From positions 27,981 through 91,980 of IMG/VR virus record IMGVR_UViG_2579778606_000002: DNA of 64,000 bases. One strand, written 5' to 3'. The notes below the pieces were generated by a model. The model saw only the letters and a list, made by a program, of their open reading frames with translations, ran no database searches and was not told the origin of the DNA. The position numbers were made by a program, and so were the translations under genes. Positions 821-60,557 of this stretch are shown here, piece after piece. Each line of letters begins with the position of its first letter. The stretch's first letter is position 1. The stretch is from a virus. Taxonomy: Duplodnaviria > Heunggongvirae > Uroviricota > Caudoviricetes.

Positions 821-843
821 AAAAGCCCCGGCCAGGCCGGGGC
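821..843 (-). terminator. Rho-independent terminator-like GC hairpin (gccccgg..ccggggc) with flanking A/T tract
   Basis: 7-bp GC stem seen directly; A-run on plus side gives U-tract on minus strand, 9 nt downstream of the Rha-fragment stop. Confidence 0.5.
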
Positions 844-851
844 ATCACACT

Positions 852-1064
852 TCAAGTTACGATCCAATCATTACCGACTGCATCCGCCGTCGATAAATCG
901 ACTTCCCGGATCTGGCATCCATTAATACAAAACCATCCGGTAGTAGAGCAATTATCAGGCCAGATCCATATACCAACACTCCATGCTTTACGGCAGCACA
1001 CTTCAGCCTGTCCTTCCCTGATTTTTTTTACCGCCTGCATGATGTCCATCACTCGCCTCCCCAA
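852..1064 (-). pseudogene. C-terminal part of Rha-family paralog in a shifted frame (apparent frameshift)
   Basis: Translation aligns with the C-terminus of the intact paralog 53648..54589 (both end ..DWIV[TS]) but is out of frame with ORF 1049..1756. Confidence 0.35.
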
Positions 1065-1756
1065 CCGATCACCTGGAATTGTCCCATCCTTGGGTGATAC
1101 CAGCGTTTTCCTCGGTGTTCAGCCTCCGACATCATCAGGGTAAAGGCATTCATGAAGGGAGATAAGGCCACAATAGTACGACGCGACAATACCCCCTCTG
1201 GCGTCAAAAACTCATGCGTATCTGTGGGAATCCGGTAAGCGTTGACCAGGTTACGGCATTTGGCTTCAGTCAGGCCACATTTCGCCGCTAACTGGCGATA
1301 GCCAATGTAACCTTCTGGCATGTTGCCCTTCTTGATCTGCTCGACGGTTTCAGCAACCTGGCTAACCTTTGACTCAACAACATGAAGCCGCTTTTGCTGC
1401 TGAACTGCATTTGCAGCCATTGCAGCGATCATCTCTATTTCGGTCAACGGCTGGCGTACTTGTTCTTCCAGTTCGCGCCAGCGGTCCACCAGCCGGGCGG
1501 TGAATTCGGGAGAGAGCTGCGCAACGACGATAATGCTATCGCGCTTGCCTTGCTCGCCTTCGAAGACGTAAGCCTCAACACTACGTCGTAGTCCTAAGTT
1601 ATTGATTTTTTCGAAAACCTCAATTTGAGGACGAACAATAACGCCACCTTTGTCTAATGTCTCAATAGTGCGTTTCACATTGTCATGACGTTTTCCCACC
1701 AGCTCCGCGATCTCAATGCTGGTCATTGATGGCTTTTCGAGAATGCAGATATCCAT
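1049..1756 (-). CDS. Rha-family phage regulatory protein (antirepressor-like), truncated relative to paralog
   Basis: N-terminus MTSIEIAELVGKRHDNVKRTIE and block FEGEQGKRDSIIVVAQLSPEFTARLVDRWRELE typical of Phage_pRha; paralog at 53648..54589. Confidence 0.65.
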   Translation of the reverse strand: MDICILEKPSMTSIEIAELVGKRHDNVKRTIETLDKGGVIVRPQIEVFEKINNLGLRRSVEAYVFEGEQGKRDSIIVVAQLSPEFTARLVDRWRELEEQVRQPLTEIEMIAAMAANAVQQQKRLHVVESKVSQVAETVEQIKKGNMPEGYIGYRQLAAKCGLTEAKCRNLVNAYRIPTDTHEFLTPEGVLSRRTIVALSPFMNAFTLMMSEAEHRGKRWYHPRMGQFQVIGWGGE

Positions 1757-1980
1757 CAGTGAGACTCCGCAATGCCGGGATTGGTAATATTGCGATACCA
1801 GGGATTGGTGTTTGGTTGTGGGGAAGTAGAGAAACGACCAGTGAGAACGCCATACTGATCAGGGATCAGAGAACGGGCTTCTTTTTCAGTTGCGGCAATT
1901 GCGAAGTGATCGCAGTGTTTTTGCAGGGAGTGAAAACGCCAGATGAATTCTGGACGTGAGCAAGGATTGGCATTAACCAT
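1756..1980 (-). CDS. icd: Icd-like small protein (host cell division inhibitor-like) preceding Rha gene
   Basis: 74-aa ORF, stop/start overlap with downstream Rha gene; motif EFIWRF..EKEARS shared with paralog 54589..54804; arrangement as P1 immI. Confidence 0.45.
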   Translation of the reverse strand: MVNANPCSRPEFIWRFHSLQKHCDHFAIAATEKEARSLIPDQYGVLTGRFSTSPQPNTNPWYRNITNPGIAESH

Positions 1981-2014
1981 AGTTACGGCCTCACTAACAG
2001 GTTTAACAACCTGC

Positions 2015-2200
2015 TACCCGCTGCTAAACAGGTGGCAGGACGTGACGGGGTTAGCAGACTGGCGTTAGTGAAACCAGCAGGCCGAAGCCTCCCCATCACG
2101 CCCCACCATAATTTGGGCGTAACGCGGTTTTACGGACACAAAAATACCGCAATATCGGATATCTGCGGTTGTCCGCACTAACATTCAGGCTGCTAAACCC
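2015..2200 (-). ncRNA. Candidate c4-like antisense RNA / translational control region of icd-rha copy 1
   Basis: Direct boxes CTGCTAAAC near 2021 and 2190 with inverted copy GTTAGCAG near 2050, about 45 nt upstream of icd start; analogy to P1 c4. Confidence 0.25.
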
Positions 2201-2308
2201 GGTCGCAGAATTTGCTACGACGGCATGAATATAAGCCTGAACATTAGAAAGATCAACAGAATTTTTATCAGATGCTGTTTTTTAGTGACGATATAAATCA
2301 TACATTCT

Positions 2309-2340
2309 TGATTAGAAACATCAATTTAATTTTCTAACAT
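2309..2340. promoter_or_regulatory. 32-bp operator-like palindrome (TGATTAGAAA..TTTCTAACAT)
   Basis: Member of a recurring inverted-repeat family seen at about six loci; lies upstream of icd-rha copy 1. Confidence 0.5.
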
Positions 2341-2396
2341 ACATTTTCGAGCGATGAAATTCCCGCCGCACGGTTATTGTACAGTCAATCGCAACA

Positions 2397-44286: not shown

Positions 44287-44299
44287 TTTTAGCAAAACT

Positions 44300-44331
44300 A
44301 TGTTAGAAAACAAAACTCAATTATCTAACAC
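44300..44331. promoter_or_regulatory. 32-bp operator-like palindrome (ATGTTAGAAAAC..TATCTAACAC)
   Basis: Same inverted-repeat family, about 14 nt upstream of the rdgC start. Confidence 0.5.
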
Positions 44332-48250: not shown

Positions 48251-48253
48251 CAA

Positions 48254-48273
48254 AGCCCACCTTAAGGTGGGCT
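48254..48273. terminator. Terminator-like hairpin (AGCCCACC-ttaa-GGTGGGCT)
   Basis: Perfect 8-bp stem 4 nt after the stop at 48250; U-rich flank stronger on the minus strand. Confidence 0.45.
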
Positions 48274-48475
48274 TCGCCAGAAATTATTTTCTGGTATTCA
48301 GAACGCCATTACCGGACTTTGCCTTGACCAAGTATCACAACTGGTTTGACCTGTTATGATAGCTGGTTGCGGGATGTCTGAATTTCTTCAGTCTGCTGCA
48401 TCCTCGAAGGTTTGGTTCAACATGTACCATTCCTTCACTGTCATAATAGTGTACTATTCATGTCCTTGCAAACAC

Positions 48476-53608: not shown

Positions 53609-53620
53609 TTAGTAGTTAAA

Positions 53621-53639
53621 GCCCCGGCATGACCGGGGC
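53621..53639. other. Conserved GC hairpin after Rha gene (GCCCCGG-catga-CCGGGGC)
   Basis: Same stem as hairpin 825-843 after Rha copy 1, but without a clear U-tract here. Confidence 0.4.
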
Positions 53640-53647
53640 AAAAGCTA

Positions 53648-54589
53648 TTAACTAACAATCCAGTCGGTTGCTGCTATATCTTCTGGCTGCAAATCAATCG
53701 CACAGATCTTACCGTCGCGAATGGTGCGCCAGTTTTTCCGTGAGCCTCTTTCGGGCCATACCCAGACACTTTCAGGCCAGGATGCTCGACGGCATACGGT
53801 TGCATACCCTGTTTTAATCTTCTCTCTGGCGGTATGCAACGACAGGTTTGCCTTTGGGCTATCAGGCACAGGGTGGTGAATGGCCTGAAACAGCCCCATC
53901 CTGGGGTGATACCAGCGTTTGTTGCGTGGTTCTGCCTCCGACATCACCTGCTTAAAGGCTTTCCGGAAGGGGGCCAGGGCCACAATTGAGCGTCGCGCAA
54001 GCAAACCGTCGGGAGTCAAAAACTCATGCGTATCAGTGGGTATCCGGTAAGCGTTAACCAGGTTGCGACATTTGGCTTCAGTCAGGCCACATTTCGCCGC
54101 CAGCTGGCGGTAGCCAATGTAGCCTTCCGGAATATTGCCTTTCTTTATTTGCTCGAGTGTTTCAGCGACCATCGATACTTGTGCTGATACCTCGGCTACC
54201 TGGGCATTTACGGCGTTGATCCGGCGTTCATGCTCAAGATGCATTTGCGCCATTTCAGCCAGGATTTCGGCTTTTGATTTTAACTGTACCCGGGCATTCT
54301 CCAGTTCGCGCCAGCGGTCCACCAGCCGGGCGGTGAATTCCGGAGAGAGCTGCGCGACGACAATGATGCTGTCTCGTTTTCCTTGTTCGCCTTCAAATAT
54401 GTAAGCCTTGGAAAATCGACGAGGGCCAACTGATTGTTTATTTTCAATTTCCACAGATTGTGGAAATTGGATCACACTCTTTTTAGCCAGTGTTTCGATA
54501 GTTCTCTTCACACTATCTTGGCGACTTCCTACCAGTTCCGCGATCTCAATGCTGGTCATTGTCGCTTTTTGAGAGATGGACAGATTCAT
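53648..54589 (-). CDS. Rha-family phage regulatory protein (antirepressor-like), intact paralog
   Basis: 313-aa ORF; N-terminal Phage_pRha-type segment nearly identical to copy 1. Confidence 0.7.
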   Translation of the reverse strand: MNLSISQKATMTSIEIAELVGSRQDSVKRTIETLAKKSVIQFPQSVEIENKQSVGPRRFSKAYIFEGEQGKRDSIIVVAQLSPEFTARLVDRWRELENARVQLKSKAEILAEMAQMHLEHERRINAVNAQVAEVSAQVSMVAETLEQIKKGNIPEGYIGYRQLAAKCGLTEAKCRNLVNAYRIPTDTHEFLTPDGLLARRSIVALAPFRKAFKQVMSEAEPRNKRWYHPRMGLFQAIHHPVPDSPKANLSLHTAREKIKTGYATVCRRASWPESVWVWPERGSRKNWRTIRDGKICAIDLQPEDIAATDWIVS

Positions 54590-54804
54590 CAGTGCACCTC
54601 CACGCAGTTCATTGGCAGATTCCAGTAATTGAGGATCTCCATCGCATCAAGAGTGAAGCGTGCGGCAAAAATGCAGGGTTCTTCAGGAAGGTATGAACGA
54701 GCTTCTGCTTCGGTTGCAGCCATGACGCAGATATACAGGTGTTTTTGGCAGGAATAGAAACGCCAGATAAATTCAGAATGAGTTGGGGTAGGGATAGTAG
54801 CCAT
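54589..54804 (-). CDS. icd: Icd-like small protein, copy 2
   Basis: 71-aa ORF with GGAGG RBS; 1-nt stop/start overlap with Rha gene; EFIWRF and EAEARS motifs shared with copy 1. Confidence 0.45.
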   Translation of the reverse strand: MATIPTPTHSEFIWRFYSCQKHLYICVMAATEAEARSYLPEEPCIFAARFTLDAMEILNYWNLPMNCVEVH

Positions 54805-54839
54805 ATTGGCAGCCTCCTTTTGCTAATTTAAGGAGCTAC

Positions 54840-55050
54840 CGCGTGAGGTTCCAATCTCAATGGCGGTAGCACTGACTGGGTTGGAACTACCGGCGCAAAA
54901 GGGAACCGGCCTGCCTTTCGGCAGCCCAGCCAGCACTACCATTGATCTCTGAGCTAAACGCTACGTATGGCTGTGCGATGGCATGACACAAGAAAAGACG
55001 CTTTCGGCGTCTGTGTCGCCTTTTGCATTATCCGGGGTTCCAATCCCGGC
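54840..55050 (-). ncRNA. Candidate c4-like antisense RNA / control region of icd-rha copy 2
   Basis: Direct boxes GGTTCCAATC at 54847 and 55036 with inverted copy GGTTGGAAC at 54879, about 45 nt upstream of icd start. Confidence 0.25.
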
Positions 55051-55117
55051 ACCCGTTTTTCTAAGGTGCCGTAGAAATATACCCCACGATAATGCCAGGG
55101 CGCAACTGTGTGTTTTC

Positions 55118-55285
55118 TTATGCTTTTCTTTTCTTCTTTTGGGCTTGCTTGCAAGCGTAGGCCATTGCTTTAGCTTTCACTTCATCCAGCTTCCCGGTGA
55201 TCACTTCTTTTCCAAGAGTGACAAACCAATCATAGCAACCGCCAGTGATGTTCTGGATTTGAAAGTTGAGGTAGCGAACGGTCAT
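55118..55285 (-). CDS. Small basic hypothetical protein (55 aa), not in ORF track
   Basis: ATG at 55283-55285 preceded by GGGGGTG RBS; encodes MTVRYLNFQIQNITGGCYDWFVTLGKEVITGKLDEVKAKAMAYACKQAQKKKRKA. Confidence 0.35.
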   Translation of the reverse strand: MTVRYLNFQIQNITGGCYDWFVTLGKEVITGKLDEVKAKAMAYACKQAQKKKRKA

Positions 55286-55605
55286 TTTGACACCCCCAGC
55301 GCGAGTAAAGAATGCAGATTATCGCGTGAGTGGCGGACAACGAGTGATGGGAAAAGACAGTAGCTGTTCATAGTGTAGTGACTCCTTGCTTTCGGAGCCG
55401 CCATCGACTGTTCCACGGTCTGGTGGCGGCGCAATAAAGGCTGGAACACCGTGAGTCAACGGGGGCTTTTCAGCCACCTATATTGCACCGCCATTGGTAT
55501 GGCGGCGGCAATCATACGAAAAACCAAACGGTTTGTCTCAAAAAGTTGACCGGTGTACCAATCGGTTGTGAATGTACAACGGTGAATTTCACAATTCAAC
55601 TTAAA

Positions 55606-55637
55606 ATGTTAGAAAACTAATTTATTAATTCAGTCAC
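55606..55637. promoter_or_regulatory. Operator-like half-site ATGTTAGAAAA with degenerate partner
   Basis: Overlaps the ref stop codon; upstream of the small ORF and icd-rha copy 2. Confidence 0.35.
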
Positions 55638-56236: not shown

Positions 56237-56268
56237 GTGTTAGAAAATCAAAATTGATTTTCTAACAC
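56237..56268. promoter_or_regulatory. Near-perfect 32-bp palindrome GTGTTAGAAAATCAA-AA-TTGATTTTCTAACAC (operator candidate)
   Basis: 15-bp arms fully complementary; between divergent ref and the early operon. Confidence 0.6.
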
Positions 56269-56308
56269 AAAATGAAGATACTTTTTTCGGACGCTATATC
56301 AGGAGGTC

Positions 56309-60484: not shown

Positions 60485-60516
60485 GTGTTAGAATATTGAT
60501 TTTAATTTTCTAACAT
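60485..60516. promoter_or_regulatory. 32-bp operator-like palindrome (GTGTTAGAAT..TTTTCTAACAT)
   Basis: Same inverted-repeat family, about 40 nt upstream of gene 60558. Confidence 0.5.
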
Positions 60517-60557
60517 ATTATTTTACCGCTCGGAACAAAACAGAGTCGGTATACATT

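Follow-up and report, generated by a model that had tools for sequence, protein, structure and literature searches.

In this study we analyzed a 64,000-nucleotide stretch of DNA from a tailed phage (Caudoviricetes; positions 27,981 to 91,980 of IMG/VR record IMGVR_UViG_2579778606_000002), which is called the window below, and within it the segment from 53,621 to 55,637. This segment carries on its minus strand a structured leader, a gene for a small antisense RNA of the C4 type and two overlapping protein genes, icd2 and ant2, which together with a candidate promoter and a downstream hairpin form what we call module 2 (Table 1). Another locus of like layout, module 1, is present near the start of the window. 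The sequence-only reading of this DNA had described the two loci as icd-Rha copies with different candidate antisense boxes, and we found the icd and Rha (here ant) open reading frames (ORFs) in both copies, on the minus strand. Segment 53400-55700 matched Escherichia phage D6, a circular plasmid prophage related to P1, at 92% identity and had about 90 full-length matches at 91-97% identity among plasmids of 89-97 kb from E. coli, E. marmotae and Shigella. Judged by its sequence, the window comes from a plasmid prophage that is D6-like and related to P1, and we read the two modules as P1-style immI cassettes of this prophage, each consisting of a C4 antisense RNA and an icd-Rha/Ant operon.

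The layout of the two modules

An Rfam search, proposed along with the sequence-only reading, returned the C4 family (RF01695, gathering score 45 bits) at both loci. C4-2 of module 2 scored 76.7 bits (E = 3e-13) over the full length of the model (1-87), and C4-1 of module 1 scored 70.0 bits. The leader of module 2 matched isrK (RF01394) over model positions 1-77 of 77 with 59.4 bits against a gathering score of 50, and that of module 1 matched c4-a1b1 with 53.9 bits against 46.7. The -10 element of the candidate module 2 promoter ends 6 nt ahead of the start of the isrK match; this promoter is given as a candidate because it lies below the threshold of the promoter scan. Box names follow the P1 record, in the transcript order a1, b1, c4, a2, b2, icd. 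The putative c4-like boxes noticed earlier, GGTTCCAATC at 54847-54856 and 55036-55045 (plus strand) and the inverted GGTTGGAAC at 54879-54887, were recovered at these places. In both modules b2 was found to overlap the Shine-Dalgarno sequence, and in module 2 the box and the Shine-Dalgarno sequence together (GCAAAAGGAGG, 54813-54823) lie 9-19 nt ahead of the icd2 AUG. The spacing of the boxes relative to the icd start, which had been taken to be the same in the two copies, turned out to be similar and not identical, the a2 core starting 47 nt (module 1) or 50 nt (module 2) upstream of the AUG. The icd2 stop codon overlaps the ant2 start codon (TGATG at 54589), an arrangement that points to translational coupling.

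Only two called coding sequences overlap the boxes, and neither is credible as a protein gene; the objection that the boxes might fall inside the gene of a real protein does not hold. One is D6 orf84, which overlaps the C4-2 gene on the opposite strand. The other is a coding sequence labelled 'ash family protein' by the Prokaryotic Genome Annotation Pipeline (PGAP), which sits on the C4 gene (54823-54942, minus strand; CP057047.1 29802-29921). The length of the ORF over C4 varied from 14 to about 60 codons among the C4 variants, while the RNA stems co-varied. The 'ash family protein' is probably a protein call made on an RNA gene, and a recurring annotation error.

In the D6 record, genes named 'Icd-like' and 'anti-repressor Ant' follow one another, in this order, at both loci. 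Region 800-2400, which contains module 1, matched 110 plasmids at a coverage of at least 80%, and seven of the 12 accessions listed for it recur in the match list of module 2. Since D6 and about 90-110 complete plasmids have both modules, the duplication is a conserved trait of this family and no artefact of assembly, as it had been feared to be. Between the two copies, blastn aligned the N-terminal part of ant (76.5% over 307 bp), its middle and C-terminal part (82.4% over 278 bp) and a portion of icd (75.6% over 82 bp), and returned no alignment of the leaders and C4 genes. The identity of 85-90% claimed earlier holds locally, as 60-bp windows within the ant and icd parts reach 82-95%, but not overall, the stretch from icd to the terminator being 66% identical; the longest exact run common to both modules is 41 bp. 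The hairpin after ant, likewise said to be common to the copies, has the same 7-bp stem, GCCCCGG/CCGGGGC, in both; that of module 2 was missed by the terminator scan, and its function as a terminator is uncertain. The repeats had also been suggested as substrates for deletion or inversion. Deletion is possible; but as the repeats are direct, recombination between them would delete and not invert, and would split the plasmid. The p75 deletion variant of D6-like plasmids was considered as a product of such recombination and ruled out, as baseplate and tail genes are removed in it instead.

Table 1. Features of modules 2 and 1 and further sites of the 19-nt motif, in window coordinates
Feature	Positions	Strand	Basis or remark
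Module 2, whole	55105-53611	-	promoter, isrK-like leader, C4, a2/b2, icd2, ant2, hairpin
19-nt motif AATGTTAGAAAACTAATTT	55605-55623	+	at the end of ref, ~500 bp ahead of the leader of module 2
Small ORF of 55 aa in the ORF list; D6 orf86 is shorter	55282-55449	-	between operator motif and leader
Small ORF, 55 aa, D6 orf85 homologue	55118-55285	-	lysine-rich C-terminus (KKKRK tail); phrog_7786, E = 9e-42, unknown function
Candidate proximal promoter TTGCGC-18 nt-TATATT	55076-55105	-	read from the sequence; placed like P1 P51b
isrK-like leader RNA	54991-55069	-	Rfam isrK, fold, terminator scan
a1 UUGGAAC	55043-55037	-	in hairpin loop
b1 GCAAAAGG	55026-55019	-	
Intrinsic leader terminator, stem	55012-54996	-	then UUUUCUU (TTTCTTGTGT); terminator scan
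C4-2, C4-type antisense RNA gene	54859-54946	-	Rfam C4
b' CCUUUUGC	54902-54895	-	loop of second C4-2 hairpin
a' GUUCCAA	54887-54881	-	single-stranded 3' bulge of C4-2
Target box a2 UUGGAAC	54848-54854	-	just 3' of C4
Target box b2 GCAAAAGG	54823-54816	-	runs into Shine-Dalgarno GGAGG of icd2
icd2	54589-54804	-	Icd-like cell-division inhibitor, 71 aa; AUG at 54804
ant2	53648-54589	-	Rha/Roi-family protein, 313 aa
Post-ant2 hairpin GCCCCGG-TCATG-CCGGGGC	53611-53629	-	weak U tract UUUAAC
Module 1, whole	2341-825	-	layout like module 2
19-nt motif, candidate D6-type C1 operator	2323-2341	-	directly before the module 1 promoters; abuts promoter-like TTGATG-16-TATGAT (2324-2297)
P51b-like promoter	2256-2228	-	promoter scan
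a1/b1 leader	2182-2234	-	Rfam c4-a1b1; alignment to P1/P7
C4-1	2028-2113	-	Rfam C4; a' CUGCUAA (P7 type), b' CACUAAC (P1 type)
icd1	1756-1980	-	
ant1	1049-1756	-	
70-aa ORF after ant1	852-1064	-	
Intrinsic terminator GCCCCGGCCTGGCCGGGGC then TTTTT	825-843	-	terminator scan
19-nt motif	56251-56269		before ref
19-nt motif	44299-44317		
19-nt motif	60499-60517		

Box specificity and covariation

The c4-icd segment of module 1 is about 91% identical to P1/P7, and outside this segment the phage DNA is only distantly P1-like. When module 1 (window 1990-2240) was aligned with P1, P7 and D6 (alignment A1), the sequences were found to be near-invariant except for the boxes, where a1, a' and a2 change together and b1, b' and b2 do likewise; the P1 record marks these box sites as C4 targets. 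The P1 cassette has UUUGACAG as its a box and GUUAGUG as its b box, and the P7 cassette has UUUAGCAG and GAUUGUG. Module 1 of the window combines an a box of the P7 type (UUAGCAG) with a b box of the P1 type (GUUAGUG), and module 1 of D6 combines an a box of the P1 type with a new b box (ACUUACG), which shows that a and b boxes assort independently in nature. The boxes of module 2, UUGGAAC (a) and GCAAAAGG (b), are unrelated to every box of the module 1 type. Between b1 and C4 of module 1 (2118-2175, minus strand) we also noticed a hairpin followed by UAUUUUUGUGU, with no variation among P1, P7 and D6. P1-type cassettes may therefore likewise yield a short a1/b1 RNA that ends in a terminator.

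A scan of IMG/VR with Icd2 yielded 80 loci, all 80 of which have a leader and C4 of the module 2 type, and these reduced to 39 distinct leader sequences (alignment A2). Eight combinations of box alleles were found, with at least four a-alleles and at least four b-alleles; natural alleles are UUGGAAC, UUGAGAC and UUGGUCU in the a box and GCAAAAGG and GUCAAAGG in the b box. Across the 39 leaders, a1:a' and b1:b' together were 99.0% paired and b':b2 and a':a2 together 99.3% paired, with 7 of 15 pairs compensatory in each of the two sets. Taken singly, a':a2 was paired in 100% of the leaders (4 of 7 pairs compensatory) and b':b2 in 98.7% (three compensatory pairs), and up to five standard pair types occurred at one a1:a' position, with five at the matching a':a2 position. 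When the pairing partners were slid against each other by one to three columns as a control, pairing was only 25-58%. None of the column shuffles reached the observed covariation score; as the shuffle control is inflated by the kinship of the sequences, it is the slid control and the multiple pair types that carry the case. In every variant of alignment A2, b2 overlaps the icd Shine-Dalgarno sequence. The C4 stem also varied in a compensatory manner, at 13 of 24 pairs across 13 variants in the RNAalifold consensus, which comprises the closing stem and the first hairpin, the second hairpin with b' being taken from the Rfam alignment. The compensatory changes at the three box sites and in the C4 stem thus argue for selection acting on the RNA. 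In one locus, L036 (1701-2006), a1 (UUGAGAC) mismatches its own a' and a2, which are of the UUGGAAC type. The leader of this locus is probably recombinant, and the mismatch suggests a weaker constraint on a1 than on a2.

C4-2 was found to be complementary over 7 and 8 nt at all four of its target sites. For the exposed a' and b' segments only, chosen by hand, the cognate box pairings sum to a predicted -21.0 to -22.1 kcal/mol. By the same prediction C4-1 would pair with the module 2 target at -9.8 kcal/mol and C4-2 with the module 1 target at -12.6 kcal/mol, both off-register, and the experimentally heteroimmune P1 and P7 gave -9.9 and -14.5 kcal/mol by this measure. The sequence-only reading had drawn on the analogy with P1 and P7 to propose two circuits of distinct specificity, and the likeness of the c4-icd segments, the co-varying boxes and the poor predicted cross-pairing all bear this out. 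We predict two antisense channels without cross-talk at the RNA level. Their independence is limited to the antisense level, both modules being downstream of the same candidate operator motif.

Protein products and the candidate operator

The products of icd2 and of the other copy matched the Icd-like NCBIfam family NF033153 with 49.4 and 40.0 bits, respectively, against a cut-off of 25; icd2 also matches phrog_1426, and Icd2 and Icd1 are 45% identical. Ant1 and Ant2 share 67% identity and both match phrog_63, 'anti-repressor Ant' (E = 3e-58 for Ant2). In Pfam, the Phage_pRha family (PF09669, cut-off 29.9 bits) was matched by Ant1 with 36.8 bits and by Ant2 with 28.1 bits, just below the cut-off, and helix-turn-helix (HTH)-type matches were noticed in the Ant proteins. 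Phage homologues of Ant1 and Ant2 are named Roi, DNA-binding protein or Ant about equally. From their position and annotation we infer that these Rha proteins act as antirepressors.

Ant2 has a C-terminal extension (about residues 249-313; 53648-53845, minus strand), which is homologous to the 70-aa ORF after ant1 at 35% identity, and Ant2 residues 252-312 and this ORF belong to the same PHROG, phrog_7385. It follows from this likeness that the same terminal gene stands free in module 1 and fused in module 2. The domain is possibly a Tad2-like anti-defence payload. The Pfam family Tad2-like/DUF2829 (PF11195, cut-off 25 bits) was matched below its cut-off by the two window copies (15.2 and 11.2 bits) and by three relatives (14.0, 16.5 and 23.9 bits). 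It is the only Pfam family matched by both window copies and the relative P0008, and is one among several Pfam matches in the other two relatives; the matches cover almost all of the profile. A model of the domain made with AlphaFold2 (AF2) had a predicted local distance difference test (pLDDT) score of 73, and ranks 2-4 of its matches in BFVD were Tad2-like/DUF2829 proteins, with probabilities of 0.95-0.98, template modelling (TM) scores of 0.52-0.59 and weak E-values of 0.08-0.12. In the PDB, no match to the domain was found by single sequence, by profile or by Foldseek. Homologues of the 70-aa ORF numbered three close ones in a word-indexed search and nine in an exhaustive one, too few for a deep alignment.

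A 19-nt motif, with a consensus of roughly ATGTTAGAAAAYTAAWTT, occurs at five sites in the window against 0.06 expected, and all five sites lie between larger ORFs or at their ends. The site of module 1 holds the same position relative to icd as Op51 does in P1. In 25 D6-like loci the motif found at 55605-55623 is present without mismatch, at -817 from icd. In 53 loci with the same cassette type on a P1-like backbone, on the other hand, the motif is absent and a P1-type operator-like site stands at -329 to -358 from icd. This swap of sites between backbones suggests that the cassette comes under control of the resident repressor in whichever backbone it enters. No operator of the P1 consensus was found at the module promoters. 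In P1, ref is under C1 control. P1 c4 has a C1 operator according to the P1 record. On these circumstantial grounds the 19-nt motif is regarded as a candidate D6-type C1 operator.

The two small ORFs between the motif and the leader of module 2 are missing from the P1-like versions of the cassette, and the one at 55282-55449 had no match in Pfam, PHROG or NCBIfam. Directly upstream of module 1 lies repL. Elsewhere in the window, an Rfam match to sroH (113 bits against 80) was noticed at 48252-48437 on the minus strand, in a cargo slot flanked by tail genes; in D6, roughly the equivalent position, as judged by coordinate offset, is taken by a toxin-antitoxin pair and not by sroH.

Proposed regulation and its relation to known systems

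We argue that module 2 is quite likely a working immI-type cassette of the D6-like plasmid prophage, under control of the P1 type. Transcription would start at the proximal promoter at about 55105-55076 and probably, in addition, at a more distant upstream promoter under repressor control, and the transcript would contain a1/b1 and the terminator hairpin first and C4-2 thereafter. C4-2 would be cut from the operon precursor, as RNase P does in P1, and its b' loop and a' bulge would pair with b2 and a2 downstream. Since b2 covers the ribosome-binding site of icd2, translation of icd2 would be blocked and that of the coupled ant2 with it. The upstream a1/b1 would compete for C4-2, and as the leader carrying them ends in a terminator, they are probably also released as a short RNA, which may serve as a decoy of the IsrK kind. 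Because the boxes of module 1 are unrelated, each C4 would silence only its own operon. At the DNA level both modules appear to be under the same repressor, which the Rha proteins would, in turn, inactivate. In this way the prophage, once resident, would shut off incoming relatives that have a cassette of either type, and relatives with cassettes that escape both RNAs could induce it.

A number of points weigh against this proposal. The operator is called from the repeated motif alone, and in module 2 about 500 bp and two small ORFs separate it from the leader. The window has no homologue of coi or of c1, the gene of the presumed target of the antirepressors. Ant1 and Ant2 have no similarity to P1 Ant1 (best BLASTP E-value for Ant2, 0.35), and many of their homologues are named simply DNA-binding protein Roi. 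The box pairing energies refer to hand-chosen segments and leave the structure of the target out of account; whole-molecule runs of RNAduplex and cofold of the C4s against the targets did not tell cognate pairs from the others, and spurious long duplexes, at -33 to -53 kcal/mol, appeared throughout. Furthermore, in module 2 a terminator stands between a1/b1 and C4, which calls for read-through to C4 and icd, and the U tract of the post-ant2 hairpin is poor.

The leader itself suggests another arrangement, namely a positive switch in which the terminated leader RNA (55069 to ~54990) would open the ribosome-binding site in trans, with C4 being mainly a cis element or by-product that keeps the mRNA closed. 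We hold this to be rather doubtful, although the leader reaches the isrK gathering score and has a clear terminator at its end, and a1/b1 co-vary with a'/b' as tightly as a2/b2 do. In Gifsy-1, the short IsrK activates translation of orf45-anrP from its own read-through mRNA in trans, a mode of action with experimental proof in Gifsy-1 only, and a processed RNA downstream, STnc1160, is complementary to IsrK (PMC4825925). However, module 2 has icd and a complete C4, folded as in P1, downstream of the leader, which is the layout of P1 and not that of Gifsy-1 orf45-anrP. The varying length of the ORF over C4 also speaks against the switch. Such a switch would also be compatible with immI-type control, as a decoy titrating C4 leads to the same outcome. 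Less likely again is that C4-2 would act, as in P4 and N15, on nascent a1/b1 and a2/b2 and cause premature termination of transcription in place of a block to translation. A terminator hairpin follows directly after a1/b1 in module 2, the invariant hairpin of module 1 likewise has a U run, and PGAP puts the label 'ash family' on the ORF over C4, the name ash coming from the P4 immunity region. IsrK has also been called a structural homologue of P4 SeqA (PMC4825925). Yet the location of b2 on the icd Shine-Dalgarno sequence in every variant is what the translational model of P1 predicts, and termination has no need of it. Biere and co-workers reportedly found in 1992 that the control of transcription in P1 follows from translational repression, which weighs in the same direction.

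As to what the modules control, it is conceivable, if on balance improbable, that Ant1 and Ant2 are DNA-binding regulators of lytic growth, of the Roi/Rha type, and that Icd and the small terminal domain are further payloads, so that a different early lytic function and not the inactivation of C1 would be gated. Their lack of likeness to P1 Ant1 and their HTH-type matches would fit this, as would the position of module 1 directly downstream of repL and the fact that in Shiga toxin (Stx) and HK-type phages the names Roi or DNA-binding protein are given to homologues just as frequently as the name Ant. But the genes take the place that ant has in P1 immI, phrog_63 is annotated as anti-repressor, and AnrP, the Gifsy-1 protein encoded downstream of isrK, induces the prophage, which lends some support to an antirepressor role of Ant1 and Ant2. 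That module 2 is merely a decaying duplicate or an assembly artefact without function, as stretches of 76-82% identity between the ant genes in direct orientation might suggest, is highly improbable. No ORF is disrupted, D6 and about 100 complete plasmids have both modules, boxes and C4 stem have undergone compensatory change, at three sites in the case of the boxes, and P1-like phages have separately acquired the same cassette type between pacB and c1.

The heteroimmunity of P1 and P7 is the textbook case of immunity specificity set by an antisense RNA, and has been treated as a single locus with two alleles. The present results extend it, leaving the known mechanism unchanged. Natural plasmid prophages of the P1/D6 type carry two cassettes of unrelated specificity, there are many box alleles with matched changes at three sites, and the same cassettes are common to P1-like and D6-like lineages, which provides a natural set of alleles for testing. 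Phage-plasmids of this type are widespread among E. coli, Shigella and Salmonella, and their spread is affected by which incoming relative a resident prophage silences or is induced by. More speculatively, one may picture a combinatorial two-box RNA code on cassettes that move between P1-like and D6-like phages, with orthogonal pairs stacked in one prophage, a decoy leader and a Tad2-like payload released on derepression. If this were true, stacked cassettes would widen both the range of relatives silenced and that of superinfecting relatives able to induce, and the decoy leader would set the threshold.

The C4 mechanism of P1 immI is described in PMC8198154 (citing Citron & Schuster 1990). 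Of the known systems P1/P7 immI is the closest, and the modules of the window resemble it in the order of promoter, a1, b1, C4, a2, b2 on the ribosome-binding site, icd and a coupled gene, in the C4 fold, and in having two short boxes, co-varying at three sites, which set the specificity. Unlike P1/P7, the effector is of the Rha/Roi family and unrelated to P1 Ant1/2, the leader of module 2 is of the isrK type with a clear terminator, the candidate operator does not follow the P1 consensus and, in module 2, is found some 500 bp upstream, and the genome has two cassettes in place of one. Phage D6 and pYU39_89 have a second c4-icd(-ant) region, which is the same cassette as module 2. A second c4-icd region in this phage family was noted in the consulted part of a 2019 paper, and the consulted part of PMC6906374 describes ant as inserted between pacB and c1 of the P1-like plasmids pTZ20_1P and RCS47. 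In our own set, RCS47 (L085, 1304-2903) and JL22 (L086, 1234-2927) have a leader, C4, icd and ant of the module 2 type between pacB and c1, with leader and C4 89-93% identical to module 2. The P1-like versions (L085, L086 and L032-L084) have a divergent Icd, of about 68% identity, and the leaders of L032-L084 are of the module 2 and not the P1 type. Since P1-like phages carry a cassette of the module 2 type, the presence of two per genome is not restricted to D6-like elements. The second cassette has thus been sighted before, and we regard what is described here as an extension of the P1/P7 system; the box analysis, the orthogonality, the diversity of alleles, the isrK-like leader and the operator swap are absent from the consulted parts of these earlier reports, a comparison which leaves aside the D6 genome paper (PMC5800970).

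The leader of module 2 has its closest counterpart in Gifsy-1 isrK. Gifsy-1 isrK-orf45-anrP of Salmonella (PMC4825925) resembles module 2 in a leader that fits the isrK model and ends in a rho-independent terminator, followed by a structured or processed RNA and then by an antirepressor-like gene reached by read-through. It differs in that module 2 has a full C4 and an Icd-like gene between leader and effector and no AntQ-type antiterminator linked to it, and in that Gifsy-1 is an integrated lambdoid prophage and the element of the window a plasmid prophage. In the lambdoid Stx phage phiP27 (NC_003356.1 9510-9713) we noticed a 72% match to the leader and C4 of module 2. There are hints that the cassette had its origin in lambdoid phages. 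Finally, the CI RNA of P4 and the CA RNA of N15 are, similar to C4-2, small RNAs from the leader of their own operon with complementary sites up- and downstream, but they act by premature termination of transcription, whereas the downstream box of module 2 lies on the ribosome-binding site, as it does in P1.

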